Shown piece by piece: positions 10,518 to 50,531 of a DNA stretch of 64,000 bases. This DNA comes from Candidatus Amesbacteria bacterium (GTDB taxonomy: Bacteria; Patescibacteriota; Microgenomatia; CAZETR01; Amesbacteraceae). The notes beneath the pieces were generated by a model that saw nothing but the letters and a program-made list of their open reading frames with translations, did not search any database and was not told the origin of the DNA. Location of the stretch: assembly GCA_963736875.1 (NCBI GenBank), contig CAVTQH010000003.1, forward strand, positions 129,756-193,755, in the 5' to 3' direction. The translations under genes and the position numbers were made by a program. The number at the start of each line of letters is the position of its first letter. The first letter of the stretch is position 1.

Positions 10518-10556
10518 CGACCCGCTGTAGTCGCTTAGAACGGCAGATTTCCGACT

Positions 10557-11270
10557 TTAACGGAACAGAATAAGGGTGAGAATGAAGGTGGTAAAAAAAG
10601 ATAACAAAGCAACAATATACGGGAGAGGAGAACGGCGGGATATGTTTTCTGATACGGAGGAAGGTGTAGTCCGGGGGGCAGCGGCGGCTGAATGGATCGG
10701 GGTAACATCGGGGATAAGATTAGCCAGATCCTGAAAAGGATCCGGGATATTTTCCCGGGGAGTGGTTGCAGTCAAATCTTCCGGTATCCGGTGAGTGATG
10801 CGGGAGTACTCGGGAGGGGTGGTAACCGGTTCGGGGGTGGTGTCGGGATAGTAGACAGGAGGCGAAAAAGACGGTTCCGGGGACGGAATGACCGGCGGAG
10901 ATGACGCAAAAGTTTGAGCAGGGGGAGGTGTTTGGACCGGCGGAGGCGGAGGGGTCATATGGGGAATCGAAGGCAGAGGAAATATTTCCTGTGTGGCGCA
11001 ATAATCGATAAATTTTTTCAGTGATGATAAACGGCGTTTGGCTGTGGCCGGGGGATTGGAACTGGCCAAATATTCTTCATAACCCCGGAGAAATTCAGAA
11101 GAGATAAAAAACGGGAGAGACTGGGGGAGTAAATTCTGGCGCTGGTTTTCGGTGATAAAGGCGAAAAATAACCTAAGGTCCGAAAGATAGTTTTTAATGG
11201 TATTGACAGAGGACGTCTGAAGAGAAATATACTTTTTAAATTCCTGGATATAGTAGCGGGGGTAATCCAT
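10557..11270 (-). CDS. Membrane-anchored protein with a phage-integrase N-terminal SAM-like (core-binding) domain only, plus Pro-rich linker and C-terminal TM helix
   Basis: N-terminus 'SVNTIKNYLSDLRLFFAFI...AKRRLSSLKKFIDYC' matches the XerD/integrase N-terminal-domain pattern. There is no catalytic R-K-H-R-H-Y region. It ends in the hydrophobic stretch 'YIVALLSFFTTFILTLILF'. Confidence 0.6.
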   Translation of the reverse strand: MDYPRYYIQEFKKYISLQTSSVNTIKNYLSDLRLFFAFITENQRQNLLPQSLPFFISSEFLRGYEEYLASSNPPATAKRRLSSLKKFIDYCATQEIFPLPSIPHMTPPPPPVQTPPPAQTFASSPPVIPSPEPSFSPPVYYPDTTPEPVTTPPEYSRITHRIPEDLTATTPRENIPDPFQDLANLIPDVTPIHSAAAAPRTTPSSVSENISRRSPLPYIVALLSFFTTFILTLILFR

Positions 11271-19680: not shown

Positions 19681-19728
19681 GAGATTATTTTAGCATCCAA
19701 TGAGGAATGGCGTATAATTCGGGACATA

Positions 19729-20406
19729 ATGGGCGGAAGTAAGGAGGGACTGCAATATGTTTTTGCGGAAACATTGGGATTTAGAGATGAAGTTAAGGCA
19801 GTGGGCGTGAGAATGAAGCCAGGGAAAAGAGTCGAAATTACCGGGCGTCTTCTCTACGGTGAAGAGGGAGAAGTTGTAGATACGAAGGATATTTTACAGG
19901 TTTGGCATGATAAAAAAGTACGTTTTGCTGATAAGGAATCGGGAATAGTTGATTGGGAAGGAGTTCGGGCAGACCGTAAAAGAAACTATGCTTTAAATCC
20001 CCGAAAATGGGATCGAAAGGTTCAGGAAGGTATAAAAACGATGGACATGATGATAAAGTGGGACCGGTGTTATCTTTCTGACCGGATTAATAAAAAGATT
20101 GAGGTATTAGATATGAGGCTTGGGACCGTACTGAAGAAACTGGCCATGATCGCTTTGGTTAACGAGAAGGATGTAGGAGAAATGCTGGAGTTTTTGGCAT
20201 CGGGGATTAATTTTGATAAAAACGCTGTAACTAAGAAAAATGTGGCTAAGTTATTAAAGTATTTTCAGGGAGAGGAAGGACTGATGGTCGGAAATCTGGA
20301 CTGGCAGGCGGTGGAGGCTTACGGGGTGATGGTAAAGAATATGCCGTCTTTTGAAGAATTCTGCCAAAAAGAATATCCGAAAGAGCTGCTGCGGGGTAAA
20401 GAATAA
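19729..20406 (+). CDS. Hypothetical protein (start uncertain; alternatives are 19813, or 19486 which overlaps tyrS antisense)
   Basis: Long ORF with no recognised motifs. The first 80 codons of the track ORF are antisense to tyrS and so are unlikely to be coding. A TATAAT at 19713 sits 10 nt before the ATG at 19729. Confidence 0.45.
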   Translation: MGGSKEGLQYVFAETLGFRDEVKAVGVRMKPGKRVEITGRLLYGEEGEVVDTKDILQVWHDKKVRFADKESGIVDWEGVRADRKRNYALNPRKWDRKVQEGIKTMDMMIKWDRCYLSDRINKKIEVLDMRLGTVLKKLAMIALVNEKDVGEMLEFLASGINFDKNAVTKKNVAKLLKYFQGEEGLMVGNLDWQAVEAYGVMVKNMPSFEEFCQKEYPKELLRGKE

Positions 20407-20423: not shown

Positions 20424-21851
20424 TTGAATATGAACCGGGAGAAAAGGCAGCTGCCGAAAAAAAGCGAGGATTTGTCGGATTGGTACAACCGGGTGGTACT
20501 GCTGTCGGAGCTGGCTGATTACGGGCCGGCCAGGGGGACGATGATATTCCGGCCTTACGGCTATGCCATCTGGGAAAATATCCAGAAAGCGATGGACTGG
20601 GAAATCCGGTCAGCCGGGGTAGAGAATGCCTATTTTCCGATGTTAATACCGGAATCGTTTATAAAACGGGAGAAGGAACATATAGAGGGGTTTGCGCCGG
20701 AGCTGGCTGTCGTGACTATCGGTGGGGGGGAAGAGTTGAAAGAGAGACTGATTGTCCGGCCGACCTCGGAGACGATTATGTATGACGCTTATTCCAAATG
20801 GATACATTCGTGGCGGGATTTGCCTCTGGAAATTAACCAGTGGAACAATATTGTCCGCTGGGAGAAGCGGACATATCTGTTTTTACGGACTCTGGAATTT
20901 TTGTGGCAGGAAGGGCACAGTGCCCATGCCACACATGAGGAGTCTTTGGCCCGGGTGAAGTGGGCAATTGAAATGTATGCGTCCATTTACCGCGACTGGT
21001 GTGCCATGCCGGGGGTGATCGGGAGAAAATCGGAAGCGGAGAAATTTGCCGGGGCGGGGGCGACCTGGACCTATGAAATGATGATGCCCGGCGGCAAAGC
21101 TTTGCAGGCCTGCACGTCACATGATCTGGGGCAGAACTTTTCAAAGCAGTTTGACGTCAAGTTTCAGGACAAGGACGGACAAACGAAATATGTCTGGCAA
21201 AACAGCTGGGGATTTTCGACGAGATCAATAGGTGGCATGCTTCTGGCTCACGGCGACGATGCGGGGATAGTATTGCCACCTAAACTGGCTCCCATCCAGG
21301 TGATTGTCCTGCCGGTAACGTATGAGGCGGATGTTCTGGAGCACAGTTTTAAGATACTGACGGGTCTGGTCGAAGACGGATTCAGAGTTAAAGTTGATGA
21401 CCGGGAGGATGAATCGATGGGTTACCGGATCAACAAATGGGAACTTAAGGGAGTCCCCTTACGGCTTGAAATCGGCAAGAAGGAAATGGAAAGCGGAGTG
21501 TGGACGGCAGCCCGCCGGGATACCGGTGAGAAAGTAAAAGTCAAAACTTCCGGTGAAATTGAGAAGCTGTTAACCGATATCCAGGCAAATCTTCTGGCCA
21601 GGCAGGAGAAGTTTTTGGCTGAAAGTACCCGCAGAGTTGATGAATACAAGGATTTTAAGGAAATTATGGAAAGCGTGAGGGGACTTCTGGAAGCTTTCTG
21701 GTGTGAGGATCCCGGTTGTGAGGAGAAAATCAAAGAGGAAACAAAAGCGACGGTCAGGTGTCTGCCGCGGGAGGCCAGGGAGGAGAACGGGAAGTGTATC
21801 AAGTGCGGAAAGAAGGCTACCTACCGCTGGCTGTTTGGGTTGTCCTATTAA
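20424..21851 (+). CDS. proS: Prolyl-tRNA synthetase, archaeal/eukaryotic type (class II, C-terminal Zn-binding domain)
   Basis: Class II motifs 'FRPYGYAIWE' and 'LRTLEFLWQEGHSAHAT', plus a C-terminal C-x2-C...C-x2-C. It is short (475 aa) and lacks the bacterial insertion domain. Confidence 0.9.
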   Translation: MNMNREKRQLPKKSEDLSDWYNRVVLLSELADYGPARGTMIFRPYGYAIWENIQKAMDWEIRSAGVENAYFPMLIPESFIKREKEHIEGFAPELAVVTIGGGEELKERLIVRPTSETIMYDAYSKWIHSWRDLPLEINQWNNIVRWEKRTYLFLRTLEFLWQEGHSAHATHEESLARVKWAIEMYASIYRDWCAMPGVIGRKSEAEKFAGAGATWTYEMMMPGGKALQACTSHDLGQNFSKQFDVKFQDKDGQTKYVWQNSWGFSTRSIGGMLLAHGDDAGIVLPPKLAPIQVIVLPVTYEADVLEHSFKILTGLVEDGFRVKVDDREDESMGYRINKWELKGVPLRLEIGKKEMESGVWTAARRDTGEKVKVKTSGEIEKLLTDIQANLLARQEKFLAESTRRVDEYKDFKEIMESVRGLLEAFWCEDPGCEEKIKEETKATVRCLPREAREENGKCIKCGKKATYRWLFGLSY

Positions 21852-21905: not shown

Positions 21906-21934
21906 TTGACAACCAAGGTATATTTTAGTAGTAT
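21906..21934 (+). promoter_or_regulatory. Putative promoter TTGACA-N17-TAGTAT upstream of the ATPase gene
   Basis: Perfect -35 at 21906-21911 and a 4/6 -10 at 21929-21934. An 'AAAGG' SD-like element lies 5 nt before the ATG at 21947. Confidence 0.35.
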
Positions 21935-21946
21935 TCTCAAAGGTTT

Positions 21947-23164
21947 ATGATTCATTCATTTTCGTGCAAGAATTTCTACTCTTTTAAGGATTTTGCAACA
22001 GTCAATTTTGTGGTAAATGATAAAGCACCGGATAACTATGGGTATTTTATGGCTAAGTCGGGGAAGCGGTTATCGAAGATTGAAACAATAATTGGGGCGA
22101 ATGCATCTGGGAAAACGAATATGTTGAGAGTGTTACCGTTTATGAAGTGGTTGATTGTGGATTCCTATGCTAGAGATCCGGCCAGTAGCATTCCGGTAAA
22201 AAGTTTTGCTTTTACCGGTGAGAAAAACAAATTATCGGAAGTGGCAGCTGATTTCGAAATTGATGGCAATATTTATAGTTATGAGTTTTGTTTGAATGAT
22301 AAGAGAATTTTATCTGAGAAACTGAGTGTAACTAATAAGTCAAGTAAAAAAGTGACTAAAAAAATGGTTTTTTGCAGGACGTGGGACAAAGCAACAAGCA
22401 ACTATGTGTGGGAAGATGCGCTTTTCCAGTTACCTAAGGGTTTTATGGATTTAGATCGTGGCAATGCCAGTGTAGTTAGTTCAGCTTTTCGGCTGGGGCA
22501 TTTAGGGAGCCAGAAGATTGTTGATGGTTGGAAAAAGGTGGAATTCAATGTGAAGGAGTTTGGTTGGATTGGGGATCTATTATCACCAGATTCCGGGCGC
22601 TATGTAATTAGCGCAGTTGATTTTTATAGTAAACCGGAAAATGCTTCCCAGAAAAAACAAGCAGATGAGATACTGGCGAGTTTCGATTTGGGTTTAAAAT
22701 CCATAGATCTTAAGAAAGAAGCTGATGAGGCAGGTAATTTTAAAATTACTGTGAGGGGAGTTCATATTTTTGATAACGGGGAAGGAAATTTGCCGTTCCA
22801 ATATGAATCAGCCGGAACAAGGCAGTTGTTTGTGCTGCTGAAGACGGTTTTGTCAGTGTTGAGCCAAGGCGGAGTGGCGGTTTTGGATGAGATGGATGCG
22901 AGTTTACATCCGGAGATAGTGCTGGCTTTAGTGAATTTGTTTTTGCAACCGGAAAAGAATCGTAATAATGCTCAGCTCATTTTTGCTACCCATGGTCACT
23001 CGATCTTGAATAGCCTGGATAAATACCAGATTATGTTGGTAGAAAAGAAGGATCACGGAGGGAGTGAGGTGTGGCGGCTAGACGATGTCTCAGGGATACG
23101 CTCTGATGAGAACTATTATTCAAAGTATATGGCCGGGGCGTATGGGGCGGTACCAAGAATCTAA
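21947..23164 (+). CDS. AAA_21-family ABC-type ATPase (AbiLi / AriA / RloA-like abortive-infection ATPase)
   Basis: N-terminal 'MIHSFSCKNFYSFKD', Walker A 'GANASGKTN', ABC-signature-like 'YESAGTRQ', Walker B/D-loop 'VAVLDEMDASLHP', and H-loop 'FATHGHS'. Sampled 60-mers are ~25-43% GC versus ~55-58% in flanking proS. Confidence 0.8.
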   Translation: MIHSFSCKNFYSFKDFATVNFVVNDKAPDNYGYFMAKSGKRLSKIETIIGANASGKTNMLRVLPFMKWLIVDSYARDPASSIPVKSFAFTGEKNKLSEVAADFEIDGNIYSYEFCLNDKRILSEKLSVTNKSSKKVTKKMVFCRTWDKATSNYVWEDALFQLPKGFMDLDRGNASVVSSAFRLGHLGSQKIVDGWKKVEFNVKEFGWIGDLLSPDSGRYVISAVDFYSKPENASQKKQADEILASFDLGLKSIDLKKEADEAGNFKITVRGVHIFDNGEGNLPFQYESAGTRQLFVLLKTVLSVLSQGGVAVLDEMDASLHPEIVLALVNLFLQPEKNRNNAQLIFATHGHSILNSLDKYQIMLVEKKDHGGSEVWRLDDVSGIRSDENYYSKYMAGAYGAVPRI

Positions 23165-23663
23165 TAAAATCCGTCACTATAAGAAAACGGCTTTAGTGTT
23201 TGGCGAAGGGTTAAAAGAGGCACGTTTTTTGAGATATTTAAACCGGTTGTACACGCGTGGAAATAGAGTGACTGTTTTTGTTCGGTCTGGGAGGGGTGGT
23301 ACGGCGGATCAGGTTGTGATTGACGCGGGCAGAGGATTGGCAGGTCATGATAAGAGGATAGTTGTATTGGATAACGACAAGCCGGTTTTGGAGATGAAGA
23401 AAGCTAGATCTGAAGCTGGCCGTAGGGGAATTGAGCTGATTGAAAACACCCCTTGTTTGGAGGCGGTTTTGTTATCAATTTTGGGGGTGGAAGTAAAAAG
23501 AAAGGGTTCGGGATGGTGCAAGAAGGAATTAGAGTCAAATTATATGGTTGAAGCTACAGAGGAAATGTATTTTCGGATGTTTCCCAAGAAACTATTAAAT
23601 AAACAAAAGGAGAAGTTTCTCATGTTGAGTAGGATAATCTCGATAATGGAAGGAAAGTTTTGA
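23142..23663 (+). CDS. RloB-like / OLD-family Toprim-like protein (AbiLii-like partner of the ATPase)
   Basis: 'TALVFGEGLKEARFL' resembles the RloB 'ILIVCEGEKTEPNYF' motif. 'IVVLDNDKP' matches the DxD Toprim motif, and 'NTPCLEAVLL' matches the RloB 'SNPCFEXWLL' motif. The start is uncertain among 23085, 23106 and 23142. It overlaps the ATPase 3' end. Confidence 0.65.
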   Translation: MGRYQESNKIRHYKKTALVFGEGLKEARFLRYLNRLYTRGNRVTVFVRSGRGGTADQVVIDAGRGLAGHDKRIVVLDNDKPVLEMKKARSEAGRRGIELIENTPCLEAVLLSILGVEVKRKGSGWCKKELESNYMVEATEEMYFRMFPKKLLNKQKEKFLMLSRIISIMEGKF

Positions 23664-23713
23664 GAGATACTAATAAGATATGGGGTTGGAGAGAGATAGT
23701 AGTCTAAGATATA

Positions 23714-24955
23714 ATGGCGGATATGCCGAAAAAAGAAGCGGATATTAAGTTGCCACCCGGAACAAAGGTACCGGATCATGTAGCTTTGATTTTGGACGGA
23801 AACCGCAGGTGGGCCAGAGCCCGGGGACTGCCCGCTTTTGAGGGGCACAGAGCCGGTTTTGAAGCCGGGATGAAAGTGGCCAGAGCCGCCAGAAATTTCG
23901 GGGTCCACACTTTTACCGTCTGGGGATTTTCGACGGAAAATTGGGAAAGATCGGCCGAGGAAATTGAGTGTCTGATGAAGCTTTTCCGGAAAATGGTGGA
24001 TGTTATCAGGGAGGAAGCGGTCAAGGAAAACATCCGGTTTGTGCATCTGGGAAGGAAAGACCGGTTTCCCCGGGATTTGGTTTCATATATCAGTCAGGTG
24101 GAGAAAGAAACCAGAGGCAATACCAAGCACGTTTTAAATGTGGCTCTGGATTACGGCGGGCACGACGAAATACTGCGGGCCGTAAAAAAGGTTATCAAAG
24201 ACAAAATACCCGCGGACCGGCTGGACGAGAAGATGTTTGAAAAATATCTGGATACCGGGGACCAGCCGTACCCTTATGTTGATTTGTTTATCAGAACCAG
24301 CGGGGAGCAGCGGTCTTCAGGCCTCCTGCCGTGGCAGATGCATTACGCGGAATTTTACTGGGAGCTGGATCATTTGCCGGATATGACACCGGAGAAACTG
24401 AGAGAAGCGGTGGTCGATTATTCCCGGAGAAGAAGAAGGTTCGGTGGAAATGACGCGGAGAAGCATCTGAAATTTGATCCGAAAATTGCGGCAAAATTGG
24501 AAATTGATCTGGGCAGGGAAGTGAAAGCCGGAAACGGCAAACGGTTTCGGGATCTGGTAGTAAGCTATATACGGGAGCAATACGGATTATCCAGGACATT
24601 AGCCAAAGAAGGCGGAAAAAGTCTGGCCAAAGCCCTCGTTTACCGGAAACAGGAAGACTGGGTGCAGGCCAAAGAAGCGCTTCAGGGGCTTTATGAAATT
24701 GTCAAAAAAAACCTGGGTCTGGCTTTGGAGCCGGAACTGGCAGCCCAGCTTCAGGTGAGCCTGTGGCAAAACGGGGATAACGAGGAGGATTACCGGAAAC
24801 TGTATGCCGAGACTTACCGGTTTTCGGATTTTCAGGCTTCAAAAAGCGCGCATCTGGCGTATCTGGCAAATAACGAACTGAAAAAAAACAATTTCAGGAG
24901 AGCGAGGGATTATCTGGAAAAGTTTTACGAAGCACTGAAAGAGAGAGTGGCATAG
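23714..24955 (+). CDS. uppS: Undecaprenyl-diphosphate synthase (cis-prenyltransferase) with an atypical ~170-aa C-terminal helical extension
   Basis: 'HVALILDGNRRWA', 'FTVWGFSTENWER' and the 'IRTSGEQRSSGLLPWQ' UPPS core. The core normally ends around residue 240, whereas this ORF is 413 aa. A TATAAT at 23710-23715 overlaps the first ATG, so the second ATG at 23723 may be the real leaderless start. Confidence 0.85.
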   Translation: MADMPKKEADIKLPPGTKVPDHVALILDGNRRWARARGLPAFEGHRAGFEAGMKVARAARNFGVHTFTVWGFSTENWERSAEEIECLMKLFRKMVDVIREEAVKENIRFVHLGRKDRFPRDLVSYISQVEKETRGNTKHVLNVALDYGGHDEILRAVKKVIKDKIPADRLDEKMFEKYLDTGDQPYPYVDLFIRTSGEQRSSGLLPWQMHYAEFYWELDHLPDMTPEKLREAVVDYSRRRRRFGGNDAEKHLKFDPKIAAKLEIDLGREVKAGNGKRFRDLVVSYIREQYGLSRTLAKEGGKSLAKALVYRKQEDWVQAKEALQGLYEIVKKNLGLALEPELAAQLQVSLWQNGDNEEDYRKLYAETYRFSDFQASKSAHLAYLANNELKKNNFRRARDYLEKFYEALKERVA

Positions 24956-24977: not shown

Positions 24978-25709
24978 GTGAAGTGTCCCGGGTGTACCAA
25001 GGAGATGGCCAAAATGTCAGTTTTAGGGATGGATGAATCCTTCCGCTGCGGTAGCTGCGGCGGGGTATGGACGGTCGGTTGGGTGATAAATTCTCTGGCA
25101 GAAGGAAAAGGACTGCGGATTGAGGAAGCGAAAATCAAAGGCGGAGGCAAAAAGATGGCGGAGAAGTATCTTTGCCCGGATGACGGAAGCTCGCTTCTGA
25201 GTGGCGAGGGAGACGGATTACCGCAGGTGGTGGAGATGTGGAAGTGCGGGAAGTGCAAACACTGGTTCCTGCCCGGAAACAGTATTTTTGAACTGACCAA
25301 GGCATTTGAAGTGAAAGCGGAATACCGGCGGTTATGGAAGAGGGGCGGTCCGGCGACGGCATTTGTACTGCCGGTGGTTCTGACTGCCGTGCTGATATTG
25401 GGTTTGGGAATGATCGTGACAGCAATCCAAAACCGCCAGCAATTACAGTCAGTGGCAGCATCACCGGTTACGGGAAAAATTTCGGTGGTGTATCTGGGGG
25501 ACAACCGGGCGGAGATAAGATTTATGACCAGCGGAGAAATTGAAATTGCTTTATACAAGCGGGAGCGGGATGACCAGTGGCAGGAGGCGATGATGCTGTC
25601 CCAGGGACAGTGGAAAGCGATTATCGTGTCCGGAGTGAATTTGAGAGAGAAACTGTGGTTGTCGCTTGACGGAAGAGTCTTCAGACTGACAGTGGGACAG
25701 AAACAGTGA
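24978..25709 (+). CDS. Paralog 1 of 3: double zinc-ribbon (MJ0042-type CxxC...CxxCGG) / single TM / C-terminal beta-rich domain protein
   Basis: 'CPGCTKEM...RCGSCGGVW' and 'CPDDGS...KCGKCKHWF', a TM helix 'FVLPVVLTAVLILGLGMIVTAI', and a ~90-aa C-terminal domain. GTG start. Confidence 0.7.
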   Translation: MKCPGCTKEMAKMSVLGMDESFRCGSCGGVWTVGWVINSLAEGKGLRIEEAKIKGGGKKMAEKYLCPDDGSSLLSGEGDGLPQVVEMWKCGKCKHWFLPGNSIFELTKAFEVKAEYRRLWKRGGPATAFVLPVVLTAVLILGLGMIVTAIQNRQQLQSVAASPVTGKISVVYLGDNRAEIRFMTSGEIEIALYKRERDDQWQEAMMLSQGQWKAIIVSGVNLREKLWLSLDGRVFRLTVGQKQ

Positions 25710-25751
25710 CGCAATTTACATTTAAATATTTAAAAATTACAATTAAACTAT

Positions 25752-26471
25752 ATGTTTTGTCCTGATTGCGGGCAGGATTTGGCGGAAGTTTCCGTGACCG
25801 GATTTGACAAGTCACGGCGCTGCGGAAACTGCGGCGGGGTGTTCATGGAAGGCTGGGTGGCCAACCGGGTAGCGGAAGGTCAGATGAAGGAGCTGCCGGA
25901 GGTAAAAACCGATATCGAGAAGTTTACGGGGAAAACCAATAAGTGTCCTGTGGACAATTCACCGCTTTTCGGCTATTCCGGGGACGATATGCCTCCCGAA
26001 GTGGTGGCCTTAAAGTGCAGTCATTGCGGCTGGTGGTGGTTTCCGATGGGCAACCTGGCTAAGTTTAAGCGGGCATATGAAGCCAAAAACAATTATCTTA
26101 AATGGTGGCGCAAAAAAAACGACGTCAGGTTGGTTGCCCTGCCGGTTCTGATGGTTCTGATACTTGCCGTGACACTGGGAATTTCGGTAGCCAATGTCAC
26201 CAGGCGCCAGTCGGTGAGCAGTTTAGCGTCCGTGGGGGCGGAGGAATTCCGGGCTACCTATCTGGGAGGAGGAGTGGAAGAAGTGAAATTCAAAACCAAT
26301 AAAACTCTGCAGTGGGTAATGGTAAAGCGGTTACAGGATGAAGAGTGGGGACCGGCGGATATAGAAGTCTTGGGTGAAGGGTGGTACCGGGTTAGACTTT
26401 CAAATATTGATGAAACCAGCGTATATCAGATGCAGATTTCGGGAGTGAGATATTACTTCAAAGCCAAATAA
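25752..26471 (+). CDS. Paralog 2 of 3: double zinc-ribbon / TM / C-terminal domain protein
   Basis: 'CPDCGQD...RCGNCGGVF' and 'CPVDNS...KCSHCGWWWFP', with a TM helix and a homologous C-terminal domain. Confidence 0.7.
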   Translation: MFCPDCGQDLAEVSVTGFDKSRRCGNCGGVFMEGWVANRVAEGQMKELPEVKTDIEKFTGKTNKCPVDNSPLFGYSGDDMPPEVVALKCSHCGWWWFPMGNLAKFKRAYEAKNNYLKWWRKKNDVRLVALPVLMVLILAVTLGISVANVTRRQSVSSLASVGAEEFRATYLGGGVEEVKFKTNKTLQWVMVKRLQDEEWGPADIEVLGEGWYRVRLSNIDETSVYQMQISGVRYYFKAK

Positions 26472-26516
26472 TTGTGAAGTGTCCTGATTGCTCATACCCC
26501 GCTGACGGAGATATCG

Positions 26517-27191
26517 GTGGAGAGTGGATCGGTTCACCGCTGTTTTAAATGCGGAGGTTTTTGGGTGGATGCGGTGACGGTCAACCAGTTGACATCGCAG
26601 CAGCTGTCGCAGTGGCGCAGAATCAGCTCCATGAATCCGCTGATGGGTCACGGGGGGAAAGGACTTTGCCCGGCCGACCAGACAATACTAACCCGGTATG
26701 TGGGAGAGGCGATTCCGCCCAATATGGTGGTGGTCCGGTGTTCCAGATGCGGCAAGTGGTGGTTTCCCGGAGACAGCCTGTTTTCCTACAAACCGGCGAT
26801 TGAAGCCAAAATAAATTTTCTGCGCCAGTGGGGAGTGACCTCAAATGCGGTATCGCTCGTTCTGCCGGTGCTGACAATTGCAGTTCTGGCACTGGGGACT
26901 CTGACCGGGGTGGATTTGGTACGAAAAAGACAGCAGGCAAACGCGGCTGCAACAATGGGCCTTCGCGAATTGTCAGTGACTTATCAGGGGCAAGGCCGGG
27001 GGCTGGTGTTATTTAAACTTAACCAGCAGGTTGGGCAAATAGAGTACAAGAGAGCGGGTGCGTGGATGTGGAATAAAGCGGAAGTGACTGCCCGGGACGG
27101 ATATTATCTGGGGAATCTGACAGGGCTTTCGGAAGGAGCGGAATATTTTCTGAAAGTGGCGGGGAAGGAAGTCAAGTTTACGGCGAAATAA
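26517..27191 (+). CDS. Paralog 3 of 3: its first zinc ribbon is disrupted by a 1-nt insertion in a C4 run (26497-26500); the intact reading would start at GTG 26474
   Basis: From GTG 26474 frame A gives 'VKCPDCSYP...' then a stop. Frame +1 continues as 'LTEISVESGSVHRCFKCGGFW', which aligns to paralog 2 'LAEVSVTGFDKSRRCGNCGGVF'. The downstream region is colinear with the paralogs. Confidence 0.6.
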   Translation: MESGSVHRCFKCGGFWVDAVTVNQLTSQQLSQWRRISSMNPLMGHGGKGLCPADQTILTRYVGEAIPPNMVVVRCSRCGKWWFPGDSLFSYKPAIEAKINFLRQWGVTSNAVSLVLPVLTIAVLALGTLTGVDLVRKRQQANAAATMGLRELSVTYQGQGRGLVLFKLNQQVGQIEYKRAGAWMWNKAEVTARDGYYLGNLTGLSEGAEYFLKVAGKEVKFTAK

Positions 27192-27192
27192 T

Positions 27193-27396
27193 TTAAGCAG
27201 TTTTTGGAGTCATTCCCAGAAGCCAGAGGATGGCTTCTTTTTTATAGCGGCGGTCACCCCGGGAGTTGATGCGGATGGGAACCAGTTTGCCGCGCTTGCC
27301 CCAGCGTTTGATGGTGAGAGTGGAGACTCGGAGAACCTGGGCGACTTCACGGACAGTGAGAAGATCCGGCAGTGAATCGAGGTTCAGAGATGTCAT
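27193..27396 (-). CDS. Small HTH DNA-binding protein, AlpA/excisionase (MerR-superfamily HTH_17)-like
   Basis: 'LLTVREVAQVLRVSTLTIKRWGKRGKLVPIRINSRGDRRYKKEAILWL' fits the AlpA/Xis pattern of HTH followed by a beta wing. Confidence 0.7.
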   Translation of the reverse strand: MTSLNLDSLPDLLTVREVAQVLRVSTLTIKRWGKRGKLVPIRINSRGDRRYKKEAILWLLGMTPKTA

Positions 27397-27454: not shown

Positions 27455-30400
27455 TTACGGGGTTCCGGTGACCGGGGCGATGCGGACAGCTCCTTCGTTA
27501 TAGACACCGCTGACTTGCTCCTGAGTAAGAGGGTAATTCCATATCTTTACCTCGTCGATTTTGCCTGAAAAATGTTGGTCCGCGCCAAGGTTATACGACC
27601 CAATACATAAAGAAGCTACTTCATCGCTCGGGTCACTTGTTTCTGATGCAGAATAAACCTGATTTCCATTAATATAGATTCTGAAAGTATCATTTATCGT
27701 ATCGAATACACAAACCGCATGGTACCAGGTTCCGGTTATACCATTAAATGAAGTTACATCGTGGTCATGATACGTACTCCCACCGATTCCAAATCCACAG
27801 TTTAGGTCGTCGGCGTCATTTATCTCTAAAAAGTAGCCATCGGCGCTGTCGCTTTTATTGACTAGTGTATCCCAGTTTCCGCTGCCCGGCCAGGCGTTTG
27901 CGTTAAACCATGCCGCAAGAGAGAATGAGCCGGTAAATTGTTGAGGATAATCATCAAAGATTTCTACATAATCCCCGGTACCGTCAAATGTTCCGCCATT
28001 ATTTATTTTTCCGGTTGCGGTTGTCGCATCTCCGCCCCTGACACCATGCATATTGTTTCCTGAAGAGTCTTTTACCTCTTCGGATGTCCCATCCCAAGAG
28101 CTCTCATCAAGTTTCCACCAGCCTACAGGTTTTCCCCGGTTATAGTCCCAGGCGATCTGGGCCGGGGTGCGGACATAATTGTATAACCTGGCTTCGTCGA
28201 TCTTACCTTTGACGGGATAAGATGCGTCACTGAATTCAATACCTCCGCTTCTGTTTTCCATGGCAACATATGTACCGACGTTGTCATCCAGATTGTCGAC
28301 TCTGATGCCGTCAAGATATATTTTGATGCCGCCGGCAGTACCGCTGCCGTCGTAGGTGGCTTCCACATGGTGCCATTGGTTAAGGGTGAAGGTGCCGGCG
28401 TCGAATCTGCGGCCGATCCTGGCACCGGCGCTGTAATCGTATAGAAAAAATTTGAGAGTGGGGGTACTGCTGATCTGGAGAGTGTATTCATTACCTTTAT
28501 CAACCATAATTTGGGCGCTGGCGCTTTGACTGAAGTTTACCCAGACAGAGACAGAAAAGGGGGAATCAGTGGTGCCGTTGCCGAAGGTGTGAAGATCGGT
28601 GTCGGAGGCTTGGGAACGATCATCTGTACCGTTGAAGTTGCCGGCAGAGCCAAATATTCCACTGGCCCAGTGGACAGGTCCGGTACCGTAAATAGTGGTG
28701 GGATAGTTATTACCCGAGCTGTCGATGTAGGAGGTGCCGGTATTTTCATCGAACTTCCATTCTCCGACCGGGGGGTTGCAGGTGCCGGTGTCTCCGGGAG
28801 GACAATATGAGCGGGCAGCGGAGGTCATGGTGGCAGAAGAGGAGGCGGTGGAAAGAACTCCCATAGAGGCGGCAAAGCCCTGGTTATAAAGAAGTTTTAC
28901 CTGGTCGGCTGTCAGGGTGGTGTTGAAGACTTTGACTTCGTCGATCAAACCGGGAAAACCGCCGGTCAAGGGAGTGTAGCTTCTGATACCGATAGTCATG
29001 TCAGCAGTTTCACTGATGGAGCCGGTATGGGTGCCGGTGGTTTCAAGAGCACCGTTGATGTACAGATTACCCTGTGAGGAATCGGAAGTGCAAGTTACAT
29101 GGTACCACTGCCCGGTGCTGATGGTGGTGGTGGAGTTCAGATTCTGGCCGTTGTAGCCGCATCTGACGGTATCATCACTGTAGACGTTAAGAAACCAGCC
29201 GTCGGAAGCGCTGTCCTGGTTGCTGACAAGATATTCAATGGCACCACTGTCGGTATCCCTTCTGATCCAGGCAGAGACGGTGAAGTCGTTGGTTGACAGC
29301 AGGTTCCATTCACCGGTAGCAACTGCATAATCATCGGTACCGGTGGTGCTTAATTTCATGGATTTTCCGTACTTGCCGTCGTTTGACCAGGAGGGGCAGG
29401 CATCATCAGCTCCCGTGGGGCAGGTGGTGCCTGTTCCGGCCAAATTAGCACCAGGGGTAGCCGTACCGGAGTTGTTGGCCGTATCACCATAACCTTCATC
29501 AAACTTGTACCAGAAAAGGGAACTGCCTACCGGACTTCCGGGGGCCGGATGGCCGGCATTCATGTCTTCGATTATCTGGGCGGGAGTGCGGGCGTAGTTA
29601 TAGATTTTGGCATCATCCATTTGACCAACATATTCATATCCTGATCCATCCCCCCCCAAGGCAAAGGTGTAAGTGGAATCGAAGGATGTGTTTATTAAAT
29701 CAGTCTCATCGGATGATGCCAGAAGGACTCCGTCTAAGTATATTTTTCCGGTATCTGTTGTGGCTGACCGTGACAAAGTGACCGTTAAGTAATGCCATAA
29801 TCCGTTCCATGTAACTATGGAGGGAGAGTAATAATAATCTCTCTGAGTGCCGTTGCCGGTCTGAAAAGCTATTCTGGTGTTTGAATAATCCCACCACAAC
29901 CAATAACCGGGGTCCGTCGCGCCACTGGCTGCGCCTTTGTATATTATTGTCATAGGGTGCGTAGTGGATGGATTGGGTTTTACCCATAAACCCAAAGTAA
30001 AACTTCCGGTAGAAGCATCAAGTCCACCATTATTTAAAGTCCATGTTCCGCCGGGATCTGTTTTTTCACCGTGTCCTCCTGTACTTGAATAGTCCACACC
30101 TCCTCCATATTTACCAGGTTTCCATTTGTAACCGGTCAAGGTTAAGTTATTACCTTTACCGCTGGTGTCATAAGCGGTACTACCGGTGTTTTCATCAAGT
30201 TTCCATTCAGCGATCGGTCCCGGAGCCCAGTTATAGAGCTGTCGGACTTCAGAGGGGGTAAAGGCACGGTTGTACAGACGGACTTCATCCAGAGTGCCGT
30301 CGTAATAATTAGAACCAACCCGGCCGATATAAAACTGATCGGCGTTGATAGCGGTATCGGATGTGACGGTAACCAAAGACCAGGTATTGGCAGAAAGGGT

Positions 30401-33400
30401 GGTACCGGCAACACCGTTAACATAGATTTGGGGGTTGGTGAAACCGTTGGCTGAAATAACACCCGAAGAGTTGGACTGGATGTTTGCGGAGGAGGAAAGA
30501 TTAATATAATAATTTGTAAGAGCATCGGGATTGGTCCAGAAAGAAACAGATTTAATGCTGTCCATTCCCGATACAGATACATCAGTAACCCGTACTTCAG
30601 CCTGATAAGCATATACGGTTGAACCTATTATGTTTAAAGCGCCGAAACTTACGGATAAAGATTGTAATTTACTCCATGTCCATCCGCCACTTGGTTCATC
30701 AAGTGTAGTGTATCCAGTCCACTGACAAGTAGTTCCGGCGGCATTCACATATCCCAATGAATCTCCACCATCATACGCAGATGCTCTTACTGATCCTGAA
30801 GTTCCCAAAGCAGAACGGCAGCCATAAAGTCGTAATTCTACCTGAGATGTTGGGCATCCGTTTGCAGGGGCGTTTGTTCCGCCTCCAGTTAAAGCACCAG
30901 GTTCCGACCCATTATTACAACTTGCACTCGTAGACGTTAAACTATCAAAAGCATCTGCATCATTACTCCAATCAGATTCTGTATCGGTGGGACCGCTATC
31001 GCTGGCATTAAAGTAGTAATCATGAGTCGAACCATCACAAGTACTAAGATATTGCGAAGATCCGGGAACATGTTCCGAACCGTTTGCGAATTTTCCGGAC
31101 GCAATTGCAACAGTATTGTTATCTGCCAGTGAATTGCCATTTCCCGAATAGTCAGTTCTTGATAAACCCGAAGTTGTTTCATCCATCTTCCAGTAACCAA
31201 CCAAACCATTGGAAAGGTAACTGTTGTCGGGGCCAAAGCGGGCAGAGGACCCGTCGGATGAACCGCGGGAGGTATAAATAGCTTTGATTTGATCAGCGGT
31301 TAACTGAGCGGCGTTGAAGCGGACTTCGTCCATGAATCCGGTAAGATAACCGGTTGAGTAATTTCCCAAAACCATTGATGAACCGCTTACGGTTGTTCCG
31401 GTTGTGACCGCCACATGCTGCCATTGGTTTGCAGTCAGGACCGGGGAAATTGTTGCCCGGCCGTTGATGTAAAAAGCGGGCGAGGTAAAACCTGTTGCGG
31501 ACAGATTTCCGGAGCCGTCTGTTTCTATCCTTGTACTTCCGCCAAGGTCTGCAAGAGCGATACTGGCAATTGTATTCGGTCTGATCCACATGGATACCGT
31601 TTTTATATTCATGTTCGATGCCAATGTAACTTTTGCAGCGGAGCCTTCAAAATAAAGACATTTACCCGATACACACATATCTTCTGTCTGCCAAGTGGGA
31701 AGGCCGCTACCTGCGAGTGTTCCGTTGATGGCATTTGAACCTGCGTTGGCCGAATCTGCGGTGGTTGTACCGTAGCCCTCATCCATCGGCCAGTAGGCAT
31801 TGGTTGCCGCGGGAGTCGGAGTCGGGGTCGGCTCTGTTTCTTCACCGGTGGGTAAACCGGCGTAAGGAACCCGGGAGGAATCGGCCGTTGGAGAGGTTGA
31901 AGGTGCCCCGGAATCGGTATAATCAACGTGGATTCTTCCGTTGCCTCCGTCACCCCCGCCGGCAATGTTTGTACCTTCGCCTCCGTCACCCCCGCCAAGA
32001 GAGGTTACCAAACTCGTTCCCAGTGTATCGGTGATTGTTTTAATAAGGACCGAACCTCCGGCACCGCCTCCTCCGTTACCGCCGTGCGTTGTTGCCTGAG
32101 TTGTCGTTTGACCCGTTGCCTGAATATAACCGTCATTGGTAGAATCCAGGGTAACCGTATTGGCACTGATATATACAATTCCTCCGCCGGTTCCTCCGTT
32201 TGTGCCGTCGGCACCATCATCTCCTGCTCCTCCACCTCCGCCGCCGGAGCCAAAAAAGATAGTGGTCAGCGCTGCCGAGCCATATGTTCCTCCTCCTCCG
32301 CCACCGGCACCGGTTCCGTTTACGTTGGCAACTCCGCCTCCTCCGGCGCCCTGGGTAGATCCGCTTCCTACACTGCCACCACCGCCGGTTCCGTTACCAC
32401 AGCCCGAGCCGCCCGAACCGGCGCTTCCGGCATTACCACCTGCCATACCACCCGATGCGCCTCCCGATGTGTCCAGACACGCACCACCCCCCCCGCCGCC
32501 GGCAGTTCCCGCACTGCCTCCGGTGCCGCCGGTACCGCCGGTGCCGCCGGGAGGGCTGGGATCATCACTATTACTGCCTCCTCCGCCGCCGCCGCCTGCA
32601 TATCCTCCCCCTCCTCCTCCGGCACCGCCTCCGGTGGAGTTATCATCCGATCCGGCTGAACCTCCTCCTCCGCCTGCACCGGTAGCTACCCCGTCGGCAG
32701 CTCCGCCGGGATTACTTCCCGCTGCCCCGTCGCCGGCTCTTCCGCCGCCCCGGGATTCACCGCCGCTAGATCCGTTACCTCCGCGGCCTGATGCTGTTCC
32801 GTCGTAACTTTCTCCTGTATTTCCGCCTATTTCTGTCAGAGTACCGGCAGTTCCCCCCGCATATCCCAAGGAATTTGCGTTGATGGTGCAGGCTGTTGCA
32901 GTACAACCCGAGGCGTTAACGGTACCTGTTGCCCGAAACGCCATCACACCACCTCTGAAATTAGTTGTTCCGTCCCATGCCGACGGGGTGAAGTCGGTTC
33001 CGGAGTTGGAGAGAGTAACACCGGTATAATTGGGAATCCTTTGGACCATTATTTTATCAGCCGTGCCGTTGTATCCGTTTACGAGGTTTCTGTCCAAAGT
33101 CAGGGTGGCGGTGGAGATGGTGGTAATCCGTCTGGTTTCGTATTGCCCGGCATTTGTTCCGCGTAAATTAATAATTAAAATTTCGTCTCCGACAGCCAGA
33201 CAGCCGGAACTCGGGGTGGATGAAAGGACAATCTGATTTGTTCCGGATGACCGGTTTTCTGTAACGGAGTAATTGACCGCGTCGCCGCCGTCGGAACATG
33301 ATCTTCCGGAAATAGAAGTAGCGGTATTAATGTTGGTATCGGCGGTTATACTTATCGAGCCATCCCTGCCGCTTCCGATGTTTATGCCCGTGGGATTGGA

Positions 33401-33832
33401 AGAGAGGGTGGTTGTTCCGTCTGTAGCTCCGGAATTGCCGTAATACATATACATGGTTGTGGCACCGGCGGGCAGGCTTGTGTAAGTAACCCAGACCACT
33501 GTTTTTCCTGATGAAGCGCTGCTGACACAATATTCCTCGTAGTAATCAAGAACAGTGGTGCCGTCGCTTTTGGTAAAGATCAGGTCATCACAGTCTGACT
33601 GGAGTTTGGTGTCATTGATCAAGGTATAAGTATCCACGGCGACCATGATGGTATAAGTGGCTGATGAGCTGTTATTGGTAATGGAAATTGCCTGACGATA
33701 AAGCCAGCTTGAGTTATACCAGGCGGCTCTGACTTTGGAAGTACGGAAGAAGATTAGAGAAATCAGGGCAAAGACCAGAACCAGAGAAGATGTGCGGGAA
33801 AGCAGGCGGATTAGTTGTTTACGTTTTTTCAT
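27455..33832 (-). CDS. Giant secreted/anchored surface protein (2125 aa) with a DUF2341-like N-terminus, multiple LamG/Laminin_G_3 (concanavalin-like) domains and a ~300-aa Gly-rich low-complexity region
   Basis: N-terminal TM/signal followed by 'AAWYNSSWLYRQAISITN'. There are repeated 'DEVR(I/L)YN(R/Y)A.T..E(V/I)' Laminin_G_3 hallmark motifs. The shared linker 'PAQIIEDMNAGHPAPGSPVGS' is also found in the 2032- and 2904-aa proteins. The Gly-rich block spans ~32000-32800. Confidence 0.8.
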   Translation of the reverse strand: MKKRKQLIRLLSRTSSLVLVFALISLIFFRTSKVRAAWYNSSWLYRQAISITNNSSSATYTIMVAVDTYTLINDTKLQSDCDDLIFTKSDGTTVLDYYEEYCVSSASSGKTVVWVTYTSLPAGATTMYMYYGNSGATDGTTTLSSNPTGINIGSGRDGSISITADTNINTATSISGRSCSDGGDAVNYSVTENRSSGTNQIVLSSTPSSGCLAVGDEILIINLRGTNAGQYETRRITTISTATLTLDRNLVNGYNGTADKIMVQRIPNYTGVTLSNSGTDFTPSAWDGTTNFRGGVMAFRATGTVNASGCTATACTINANSLGYAGGTAGTLTEIGGNTGESYDGTASGRGGNGSSGGESRGGGRAGDGAAGSNPGGAADGVATGAGGGGGSAGSDDNSTGGGAGGGGGGYAGGGGGGGSNSDDPSPPGGTGGTGGTGGSAGTAGGGGGGACLDTSGGASGGMAGGNAGSAGSGGSGCGNGTGGGGSVGSGSTQGAGGGGVANVNGTGAGGGGGGTYGSAALTTIFFGSGGGGGGAGDDGADGTNGGTGGGIVYISANTVTLDSTNDGYIQATGQTTTQATTHGGNGGGGAGGSVLIKTITDTLGTSLVTSLGGGDGGEGTNIAGGGDGGNGRIHVDYTDSGAPSTSPTADSSRVPYAGLPTGEETEPTPTPTPAATNAYWPMDEGYGTTTADSANAGSNAINGTLAGSGLPTWQTEDMCVSGKCLYFEGSAAKVTLASNMNIKTVSMWIRPNTIASIALADLGGSTRIETDGSGNLSATGFTSPAFYINGRATISPVLTANQWQHVAVTTGTTVSGSSMVLGNYSTGYLTGFMDEVRFNAAQLTADQIKAIYTSRGSSDGSSARFGPDNSYLSNGLVGYWKMDETTSGLSRTDYSGNGNSLADNNTVAIASGKFANGSEHVPGSSQYLSTCDGSTHDYYFNASDSGPTDTESDWSNDADAFDSLTSTSASCNNGSEPGALTGGGTNAPANGCPTSQVELRLYGCRSALGTSGSVRASAYDGGDSLGYVNAAGTTCQWTGYTTLDEPSGGWTWSKLQSLSVSFGALNIIGSTVYAYQAEVRVTDVSVSGMDSIKSVSFWTNPDALTNYYINLSSSANIQSNSSGVISANGFTNPQIYVNGVAGTTLSANTWSLVTVTSDTAINADQFYIGRVGSNYYDGTLDEVRLYNRAFTPSEVRQLYNWAPGPIAEWKLDENTGSTAYDTSGKGNNLTLTGYKWKPGKYGGGVDYSSTGGHGEKTDPGGTWTLNNGGLDASTGSFTLGLWVKPNPSTTHPMTIIYKGAASGATDPGYWLWWDYSNTRIAFQTGNGTQRDYYYSPSIVTWNGLWHYLTVTLSRSATTDTGKIYLDGVLLASSDETDLINTSFDSTYTFALGGDGSGYEYVGQMDDAKIYNYARTPAQIIEDMNAGHPAPGSPVGSSLFWYKFDEGYGDTANNSGTATPGANLAGTGTTCPTGADDACPSWSNDGKYGKSMKLSTTGTDDYAVATGEWNLLSTNDFTVSAWIRRDTDSGAIEYLVSNQDSASDGWFLNVYSDDTVRCGYNGQNLNSTTTISTGQWYHVTCTSDSSQGNLYINGALETTGTHTGSISETADMTIGIRSYTPLTGGFPGLIDEVKVFNTTLTADQVKLLYNQGFAASMGVLSTASSSATMTSAARSYCPPGDTGTCNPPVGEWKFDENTGTSYIDSSGNNYPTTIYGTGPVHWASGIFGSAGNFNGTDDRSQASDTDLHTFGNGTTDSPFSVSVWVNFSQSASAQIMVDKGNEYTLQISSTPTLKFFLYDYSAGARIGRRFDAGTFTLNQWHHVEATYDGSGTAGGIKIYLDGIRVDNLDDNVGTYVAMENRSGGIEFSDASYPVKGKIDEARLYNYVRTPAQIAWDYNRGKPVGWWKLDESSWDGTSEEVKDSSGNNMHGVRGGDATTATGKINNGGTFDGTGDYVEIFDDYPQQFTGSFSLAAWFNANAWPGSGNWDTLVNKSDSADGYFLEINDADDLNCGFGIGGSTYHDHDVTSFNGITGTWYHAVCVFDTINDTFRIYINGNQVYSASETSDPSDEVASLCIGSYNLGADQHFSGKIDEVKIWNYPLTQEQVSGVYNEGAVRIAPVTGTP

Positions 33833-34554
33833 AGTATTTCATTTTCCAACTGGTTTAATACTTCGAATTTTAAAGACTTGCGGATTGTCTGATACTTGTC
33901 TGAGGGTAACAGTGTATTAAGGTCCTCATTTATAGCAGTGCCGGTAACCTTTTGTTCGATAAAGGATTTAAGAGCAACCAGAAATTCTTTTACCGGAAGA
34001 CCGGTTCTTTCTTTGATGATACCTGTATCGTATTTGTACCCGCTGATAAAAAAGTGGTGGATGTCGTAAATATCCCTGCCGGCGATTGAACCATGTTTTT
34101 CGTATCTGTCCAGAACAGCTACCAACTTGTGAGCGAACATGGTTTCTACCGTTTGACAAATCAGGTAACGGTCTATTTCGGATAAATAAGAGGGGAGATG
34201 TTTATCAGACAGAAACGGGTGATTGACGGCGTCGATCTTTATGCTATTTCTTTGATTGTTTTGGGCTTCATATCGGACTACATATTGGATCGAATTGATA
34301 CTTTGGTCTTTAATTTCCAGGTTGAGTGTTTTAAACGTTTTTTCCAGATGGTTTTTTATAGTTTTAATATTTGCTTCTTTTTGAATATCGAAATCAAGGT
34401 CGACAGAAAACCTGTCCAGCCGGCCAAGCATGGAAGCGCAGGTACCACCTTTAAAAATAAGAGAATTAGTTAAAATGTTATTGTCGGCAATTTCGATTAA
34501 CAGACGGTAGAGCTGACCCCGATGGATGGCGTCTGTGGCTTTGGGCAGTATCAT
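33829..34554 (-). CDS. abiEii: AbiEii/AbiGii-family nucleotidyltransferase toxin (DUF1814)
   Basis: 'LIFKGGTCASMLGRLDRFSVDLDFD' matches the AbiEii KGGTAL...RFSEDLDF motif. Its stop overlaps the start of the 2125-aa gene by 4 nt. A sampled 60-mer is ~38% GC. Confidence 0.8.
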   Translation of the reverse strand: MILPKATDAIHRGQLYRLLIEIADNNILTNSLIFKGGTCASMLGRLDRFSVDLDFDIQKEANIKTIKNHLEKTFKTLNLEIKDQSINSIQYVVRYEAQNNQRNSIKIDAVNHPFLSDKHLPSYLSEIDRYLICQTVETMFAHKLVAVLDRYEKHGSIAGRDIYDIHHFFISGYKYDTGIIKERTGLPVKEFLVALKSFIEQKVTGTAINEDLNTLLPSDKYQTIRKSLKFEVLNQLENEIL

Positions 34555-35084
34555 ATATATCCAATCTCCTTTCTTAATCGGGTAATCTTATCCCAGTCAA
34601 TTTTCGTGGTGTTGTCGAAGTGGTATCGGGGGTTGAAATAAAGCATATCGGCAATTGCCCTGTCGGTGGTAGCCTCAAGATATTTTCCGTTATTCACAAC
34701 TCCCGATGTTTGAAATAAGTATTTGTCTCCCAGCTGGCGGCTCAGATATGAGTAATCACCGATTTTAATCTGACGGTTTTTGGTGGAGCAAAAAGTTATA
34801 GGTTCAATTTTTTGAAAAATGACGCCATTTTTTGCCAGGACGGTTTCAGTACTGAGATAGGAGTACTGATGCAGTGCCGTTGTGCCCAATTCTACCGGGT
34901 CAAGTTTTTCAAAAGGCACGACAGAATAAAAACCCCGGTAAATCGGAATCAGAACGCCTTTTTTGACATACCGCCCCAGCGCAGAATACAGAGTTCTTTT
35001 ATTTGATATGCTCCAAAGCAGTTCCAGGTCTTTGGTATGAAATAACCTGCGATCCAGCTTGAGAAGTATATCTATCCTATTCAT
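34551..35084 (-). CDS. abiEi: AbiEi-family antitoxin / transcriptional regulator
   Basis: N-terminal wHTH-like 'RTLYSALGRYVKKGVLIPIYRGFYSV' fits the AbiEi_4 'rlvk.G.l.rv.rGvY' pattern. It overlaps abiEii by 4 nt (ATGA). Confidence 0.7.
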   Translation of the reverse strand: MNRIDILLKLDRRLFHTKDLELLWSISNKRTLYSALGRYVKKGVLIPIYRGFYSVVPFEKLDPVELGTTALHQYSYLSTETVLAKNGVIFQKIEPITFCSTKNRQIKIGDYSYLSRQLGDKYLFQTSGVVNNGKYLEATTDRAIADMLYFNPRYHFDNTTKIDWDKITRLRKEIGYI

Positions 35085-35112
35085 ATATGCCTAGTATAAT
35101 ATAACATAGTTA

Positions 35113-50520: not shown

Positions 50521-50531
50521 AGACGACGGGG

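Follow-up and report, generated by a model that had tools for sequence, protein, structure and literature searches.

AbiL pair between proS and uppS

Two co-oriented open reading frames (ORFs A and B) occupy the space between proS and an uppS homologue in a 64-kb stretch of the Candidatus Amesbacteria contig CAVTQH010000003.1; the whole of this stretch is termed the window, and its numbering is used for all coordinates (Table 1). They encode an AbiLi-type ATP-binding cassette (ABC) ATPase and, downstream of it, a short AbiLii-type partner with a predicted Toprim nuclease domain. The pair is very probably a self-contained, horizontally acquired anti-phage cassette of the AbiL type, abortive-infection or toxin-antitoxin (TA)-like in character, in the chromosome of a Microgenomates-like member of the Patescibacteria. 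By its matches to the AbiLi and AbiLii models, it is AbiL as PADLOC defines this system and belongs to the subfamily with a compact partner. Each of the sequence-level features of AbiL that were tested is present, namely, an AbiLi ATPase, an AbiLii partner, adjacent and co-oriented genes with the ATPase upstream, and intact motifs; the E-values of the hidden Markov models (HMMs) and the numbers of homologues exclude chance. An earlier note on this DNA had proposed an AbiL/PARIS-like system, a label of which the AbiL half is retained and the PARIS half is not.

AbiLi-type ATPase

The product of ORF A matches the PADLOC AbiLi model (PDLC02335) at an E-value of 3.3e-76 (254 bits) and Pfam AAA_21 at 6.6e-27, and its other PADLOC matches are far weaker (AriA, 1.2e-25 and 6.9e-13; HEC-01A, PtuA, 1e-15). 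All four ATPase motifs previously read from the sequence (Walker A, signature, Walker B, and H-loop) are found in this frame, and their positions are invariant in 53 homologues. The NCBIfam collection contains no equivalog for either the ATPase or its partner. The last ~43 residues of the ATPase, modeled with low confidence, hold a series of family-invariant positions (W376, R385, D387, N389, Y390, K393, Y394, G397-A-Y-G400, and P403), and this tail may be a candidate motif for partner docking or oligomerization.

An AlphaFold2 model of ORF A (predicted local distance difference test [pLDDT] score of 73.8) matches the ATPase heads of Rad50, SMC, PtuA, and OLD; a sequence search of solved structures with the ATPase yielded no match at an E-value of ≤0.01. 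That the fold is closest to the heads of Rad50 and SMC, and that the flanking genes are housekeeping genes, would suit a DNA-repair or chromosome-maintenance pair in which a Rad50/RecF-like ATPase works with a Toprim protein, but such a housekeeping role is exceedingly improbable. A Rad50-like fold is common to all AAA_15/21 defense ATPases, and the housekeeping NCBIfam models (RecF, SMC, and ABC transporter) score only 11 to 13 bits on ORF A against cutoffs of 130 to 510 (for RecF, 13 bits versus 172). The ATPase does not, then, group with housekeeping ABC/SMC proteins, an outcome that would have spoken against the earlier assignment. Moreover, none of 27 proS loci of related genomes has the pair beside proS, its composition is foreign, and its genomic contexts vary.

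AbiLii-type partner

Mechanical calling starts ORF B at position 23085 (192 amino acids [aa]), but the homologues, of which 25 and then 72 were aligned with it, begin MSRTNPxKKKRR and put the real start at the ATG at 23142. The resulting protein of 173 aa is of normal length for its family (~170 to 180 aa), in keeping with the earlier view that the partner is nearer in size to RloB/AbiLii than to AriB. It matches the PADLOC AbiLii model PDLC02338 at 3.3e-13 and, weakly, Pfam RloB (1.2e-3 with the 192-aa ORF and 8.7e-4 with the 173-aa protein), so that the Toprim/RloB-family match anticipated for the second ORF exists. Across the family, an RloB match at an E-value of ≤0.01 is obtained in 73 of 73 aligned members, the best being 1.6e-11.

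The motifs earlier read as FGEGLKE, VLDND, and NTPCLEAVLL are found as FGEGLKE, VLDNDK, and ENTPCLE, and the acidic residues within them (E22, D77, D79, E101, and E107) are all present in the window partner and invariant in the family. In an AlphaFold2 model built from a 73-sequence alignment (mean pLDDT, 84.6; predicted template modeling score, 0.78), a four-stranded alpha/beta core is followed by a helical bundle, with E22 after strand 1, D77-N-D79-K80 after strand 3, and E101 and E107 after strand 4. Such an arrangement of acidic residues is the one that Aravind, Leipe, and Koonin reportedly described in 1998 as canonical for Toprim domains. A Foldseek search with the model gave no significant match, which leaves the structural evidence for the partner moderate, and a search of solved structures by sequence with the partner profile returned only noise (E ≥ 0.4).

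The two reading frames overlap, as had been noted, by 23 nucleotides (nt), which suggests translational coupling. At six homologous loci, the ends of the genes as called place the ATPase and partner 3 to 72 nt apart, without overlap.

Table 1. Coordinates of the AbiL pair, its motifs and control sites, its immediate neighbors, and the AbiE module
Feature	Position	Strand	Remarks
proS	20424..21851	+	Class II ProRS by Pfam
Palindrome TTGGTT-ATTGAC-AACCAA	21901..21918	.	Straddles the -35 hexamer; read from sequence
Putative sigma-70-like promoter, TTGACA-17 nt-TAGTAT	21906..21934	+	10/12 matches; 12 nt upstream of the ATPase ATG
ORF A, AbiLi-type ABC (AAA_21, Rad50/SMC-like) ATPase, 405 aa	21947..23164	+	PADLOC AbiLi, Pfam AAA_21
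Walker A, GANASGKT	22094-22117		aa 50-57
Signature, YESAGTRQ	22802-22825		aa 286-293
Walker B, VAVLDEMD	22874-22897		aa 310-317
H-loop, FATHGH	22982-22999		aa 346-351
ATPase C-terminal tail	23033..23161	+	Residues 363-405; pLDDT below 50
Overlap of ORFs A and B	23142..23164	+	23 nt
ORF B, AbiLii-type RloB/Toprim nuclease (predicted), 173 aa	23142..23663	+	PADLOC AbiLii, RloB family
FGEGLKE	23199-23219	+	Holds E22
VLDNDK	23364-23381	+	Holds D77-N-D79-K80
ENTPCLE	23442-23462	+	Holds E101/E107
uppS homologue	23714..24955	+	Prenyltransf, 3.6e-67
AbiEii nucleotidyltransferase toxin	33829..34554	-	Pfam 7e-22, PADLOC 4.7e-25; G+C 0.39
AbiEi	34551..35084	-	PADLOC 2.3e-30; G+C 0.42

Homologues and their neighborhoods

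Relatives of the ATPase in a large protein database number 1,195 at an E-value of ≤1e-3, the best 120 of which are 54 to 60% identical to it and nearly all ~404 aa long, and the 103 relatives of the partner are 45 to 54% identical and ~176 aa long. An exhaustive profile search with the partner recovered about 1,176 clusters at 50% identity, and nearly all full-length members among the best 150 of these clusters are 165 to 185 aa. The named sources are mostly Patescibacteria (Parcubacteria, Falkowbacteria, Wolfebacteria, Magasanikbacteria, and Taylorbacteria), with a few homologues labeled Nanoarchaeota, Elusimicrobiota, Bacteroidales, or Clostridia, and the ATPases of the Patescibacteria clade share ~71% identity across classes. 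A 5.3-kb plasmid of Photobacterium and a phage of Stenotrophomonas have the same architecture at ~30% identity, with partners annotated as "RloB domain-containing protein," and further phage and plasmid records gave matches to the ATPase alone; a tblastn search of plasmids with the partner gave no match at an E-value of ≤0.01. With a partner of normal length in so large a family, and with the same architecture on a plasmid and a phage, the earlier idea of an undescribed variant does not hold.

Seven homologous loci were read, which correspond to six distinct neighborhoods (L002, L004/L005, L006, L038, L039, and L040). The ATPase lies immediately upstream of the partner in all seven, and five of the six neighborhoods contain defense or conflict genes: a type III-like restriction-modification (R-M) system and a serine recombinase in L004/L005, a KAP NTPase and SIR2 in L006, an MmeI-like R-M gene in L038, an N6_N4 methyltransferase in L039, and a DpnI fragment, PIN-TPR, and Fic in L040. 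The neighborhood of L002 is housekeeping-like. In L004 (4719..5928), the AbiLi gene is split into ORFs of 102 and 299 aa and the adjoining R-M genes are fragmented as well, whereas the AbiLi and R-M genes of the near-identical L005 (4717..5928) are intact; the split reflects either an assembly or frameshift artifact or inactivation of the island.

The presence of a DNA methyltransferase within 6 kb in three of the six distinct neighborhoods raises the prospect that the pair is an accessory of an R-M system rather than an autonomous defense, as might be expected of RloA/RloB: the Pfam family takes its name from Campylobacter RloB, which resides in type I R-M loci (PMC10440598). For the window pair, this is highly improbable. 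The ~10 kb to each side of it is free of methyltransferase, restriction, and specificity genes, the homologous pair stands alone on the 5.3-kb plasmid, and the scores of the other ATPase models are far lower than that of AbiLi. The pair and RloA/RloB have the Pfam RloB family in common but not the R-M context, and assignment to an R-M-embedded RloAB system was rejected for want of a type I R-M locus in or beside the pair.

Close homologues already bear the database names "RloB domain-containing protein" or "Abortive infection protein," and the defense systems of Candidate Phyla Radiation (CPR) bacteria have been cataloged at scale with standard tools (PMC12259885), indicating that the locus is an ordinary member of a widespread, known family. 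A literature search found no paper on the combination of AbiL and Patescibacteria.

Composition and origin

The G+C content averages 0.492 in the window but is 0.411 in the module, a value as low as that of only 1.1% of 1.7-kb segments, and in 400-nt segments it ranges from 0.37 to 0.46 within the module versus 0.50 to 0.53 in proS and uppS. Third codon positions differ in the same way (G+C of 0.42 in ORF A and 0.45 in ORF B versus 0.61 in proS and 0.56 in uppS). The module is therefore AT-rich, as first described, but by a contrast of ~8 percentage points rather than the 15 to 30 implied by the original figures of 25 to 43% versus 55 to 58%. In six other host loci, the G+C content is 0.30 to 0.43 in the homologous pair and ranges from 0.27 to 0.51 in the host flanks. 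This steadily low G+C content across hosts is consistent with a cassette that passes from genome to genome and has, in this case, only partly adjusted to a host of higher G+C content.

The ProRS encoded beside the pair is closest (66% identity) to those of Ca. Amesbacteria and other metagenome-assembled genomes of Patescibacteria. In a ProRS scan of genome contigs, none of the 27 proS loci had uppS next to proS, indicating that proS-uppS synteny does not extend to relatives this distant; a scan of metagenomes for UppS yielded one distant match (40%), and neither scan contained an empty proS-uppS site. The same 2,286 nt, with 4 mismatches (99.8% identity) and in the same arrangement, recur in an independent sequencing run (ERR12040022), which shows the arrangement to be stable in that population.

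No convincing direct or inverted repeats flank the module, and the 8 kb to each side of it contain no tRNA or integrase gene; the two tRNA-Ala genes of the window are 14 kb upstream. Horizontal acquisition is supported by the composition of the pair together with its patchy and context-variable distribution. Of the earlier description of a foreign module inserted between proS and uppS, the position and the composition stand, and the insertion itself is what the composition would suggest.

Some 10 kb upstream of the module, a possible mobile-element remnant (9816..11270) consists of an IS200-like Y1 transposase ORF (9816..10517, plus strand; 1.4e-7) and an adjoining ORF (10557..11270, minus strand) whose sole match is to the N-terminal SAM-like domain of phage integrases.

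Promoter and operator-like sites

A putative promoter falls inside the 95-nt gap between proS and ORF A. Its TTGACA hexamer at 21906 had been singled out before and is indeed there, but a promoter scan does not by itself exceed chance (5 sites in 2.5 kb against an expected 3.9 ± 1.9). The homologous ATPase genes of L002 and L038 also have TTGACA-17-TA(G/A)TAT sites upstream, suggesting that the cassette brings its own promoter. A further promoter-like site lies in front of uppS (23687..23715). The palindrome that straddles the -35 hexamer, the equivalent place of which is taken in L002 by a different palindrome (TATGT-TATTG-ACATA), is, speculatively, an operator that might serve autoregulation.

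Comparison with known systems

AbiL of Lactococcus lactis is likewise a two-gene operon, in which the gene for an AAA_21 ABC ATPase precedes that for a small RloB/Toprim protein. A Lactococcus prophage pair (410 and 192 aa) annotated as "abortive phage resistance protein" matches the AbiLi model at 4.4e-76, and its ATPase has the same score as that of the window (254 bits). The partners differ: that of the window matches PDLC02338, the compact form of ~170 to 176 aa, as do those of the Stenotrophomonas phage and the Photobacterium plasmid, whereas the lactococcal type (192 aa in proPhi7) matches PDLC02337. Comparison of the family profile with the 192-aa prophage partner by hhalign was weak (probability of 22%; E-value of 9e-4), with the GEG/TEG, DxD, and E motifs lining up. 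The two also differ in setting, the window module being chromosomal and in a Patescibacterium. The plasmid and phage "RloB domain-containing" pairs are only ~30% identical to the Patescibacteria clade; in a pairwise comparison, the partner on the plasmid (170 aa) and that of the window share 31% identity over the full length, and the phage partner is recovered by hhalign with a probability of 98.8%.

AbiL has been grouped with PARIS and MADS3-4 as systems composed of an AAA15/21 ABC ATPase together with a TOPRIM nuclease, of which PARIS is the only one of the type with a separate Toprim protein to have a solved mechanism (PMC11464382). PARIS, too, combines an ABC ATPase of the AAA_15/21 clade with a separate Toprim nuclease, but its AriB is a DUF4435-type Toprim of ~300 aa, and neither Pfam nor PADLOC gave a match to AriB or DUF4435 in the window pair, which is thus not PARIS. 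Membership in PARIS was rejected on this ground and because the AriA models score far below AbiLi.

In OLD and Gabija GajA, the ATPase and Toprim are fused, whereas the window has two ORFs with a stop at 23162-23164 between them, and membership in the fused systems was rejected accordingly; sequence identity is 13 to 16%, and the Toprim fold with its conserved Glu and DxD is common to the window partner. Septu PtuA has an ATPase of similar fold (8sux and 8eea; Foldseek E-value of about 1e-10), but the Septu effector is the HNH nuclease PtuB rather than a Toprim protein.

Proposed mechanism and its alternatives

In PARIS, a hexamer of AriA holds AriB monomers until a phage trigger frees AriB, which cleaves tRNA (PMC11464382). 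In Lactococcus, AbiL confers phage resistance and acts after transcription for Ceduovirus (PMC13064643). Since the mechanism of AbiL itself is unsolved, the following sensor-release model is borrowed from PARIS, and complex formation, trigger, substrate, and abortive outcome are ascribed to the window pair by analogy. The cassette would run from its own promoter and produce AbiLi and AbiLii, the latter probably by translational coupling. AbiLi would oligomerize and keep AbiLii, a small OLD-family Toprim nuclease, inactive. A phage-derived trigger might then cause an ATP-dependent conformational change in AbiLi that releases or activates AbiLii, whose E/DxD/E metal site would cut nucleic acid of the host or phage (tRNA or other RNA, or DNA), and phage production would stop at the expense of the infected cell.

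Several points weigh against reading the pair as an AbiL defense cassette. No branch of the sampled family is longer than that of the window ATPase, which is 57% identical to homologues that share 71% identity with one another, and the Pfam RloB score of the partner (19.5 to 20 bits) is under the gathering cutoff of 31.5. No second defense gene adjoins the pair, and a mobility signature was also not found. As regards mechanism, a review leaves undecided whether the mode of action of PARIS also applies to AbiL and RloAB (PMC13064643), and the PARIS nuclease AriB has no detectable similarity to AbiLii. Phage resistance by this locus, as by any AbiL of Patescibacteria, is a prediction from sequence.

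Divergence of this kind could also mark a decaying, nonfunctional remnant of AbiL, given that the window ATPase, which diverges more than any other in the sampled set, differs at 16 positions with at least 95% conservation elsewhere and that the RloB score of the window partner is the weakest in the family. A remnant is nevertheless very hard to credit: both frames are full length and free of stops, all catalytic motifs are intact, and the second sample carries the same sequence. The substitutions in the ATPase are mostly conservative and located outside the motifs, which fits long residence rather than decay.

A plain type II TA addiction module, with AbiLii as the toxin and AbiLi as the AAA antitoxin, would stabilize itself and have no real role in defense. 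AAA antitoxin/TOPRIM_OLD toxin pairs have been validated as TA systems in toxicity-neutralization assays (PMC10440598), and in the window, the genes are tightly coupled and overlapping and the module is alone amid housekeeping genes. However, the same study and the work on PARIS count such pairs as defense systems, so that the TA and defense readings are not exclusive. The homologues adjoin R-M, SIR2/KAP, and other defense genes and also occur in prophages, and the lactococcal prototype gives phage resistance (PMC13064643). Addiction without defense is accordingly quite unlikely. It is unlikely, if conceivable, that the compact pairs of Patescibacteria (~404 and ~176 aa) constitute a distinct, minimal ATPase-Toprim immune system with its own trigger and target (e.g., a cut in tRNA or rRNA suited to episymbionts, for which a large set of defenses would be too costly), docking through the ATPase tail (residues 363 to 405), invariant though predicted to be disordered, and the basic N terminus of the nuclease, and spread across domains.

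Other features of the window

The genes neighboring the AbiL pair encode glycosyltransferases, TyrS, ProRS, UppS, and Zn-ribbon membrane proteins. Between tyrS and proS, an ORF of ~241 aa (19681..20403, plus strand) has no Pfam or PADLOC match and a slightly low G+C content (0.45). The UppS homologue is 413 aa long, with the prenyltransferase domain confined to residues 26 to 244 and a C-terminal extension of ~170 aa that lacks any family match. Downstream of it (24978..27191, plus strand) are three tandem paralogous ORFs of 243, 239, and 224 aa, each with two CxxC zinc-ribbon-like motifs and a C-terminal domain of unknown function; they have a hydrophobic segment that, judged by eye from the translations, appears to span the membrane, and their sole Pfam match is a weak one to Zn_ribbon_TFIIB.

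More than half of the window (27455..62137, minus strand) is taken up by a series of giant ORFs of 2,125, 2,032, 2,904, and 2,993 aa, of the surface-protein type typical of CPR bacteria. The first is visibly rich in Gly, Thr, and Ser, and a 250-aa neighbor (41208..41963) matches Laminin_G_3. Just downstream of the 2,125-aa LamG-rich ORF and on the same strand (27193..27396) is a gene for a 67-aa MerR/HTH_17 (excisionase-like) protein with a PADLOC mad1 match of 2.4e-10; L004/L005 also have an HTH_17 gene, located just upstream of the AbiL pair. The part of the giant-ORF region from 35.1 to 42 kb is likewise AT-rich (G+C of 0.43 to 0.44). Wedged between the giant LamG-type ORFs is a second AT-rich Abi module, AbiE (33829..35084, minus strand), and the AT-richest 1.7-kb segment of the entire 64 kb, which starts at 33801, lies over it.

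Significance

The two most AT-rich stretches of the window are thus both Abi-type cassettes, AbiL and AbiE, which fits a shared pool of mobile, AT-rich defense modules. The AbiL locus poses no challenge to current understanding, and its compact pair of 405 and 173 aa, strongly conserved within the family, would be convenient for structural and biochemical work on the mechanism of AbiL. These bacteria carry few defense systems per genome but at a high density per megabase (PMC12259885), and the locus offers a clean, intact example of AbiL in a lineage of tiny genomes, in which each retained gene is informative.

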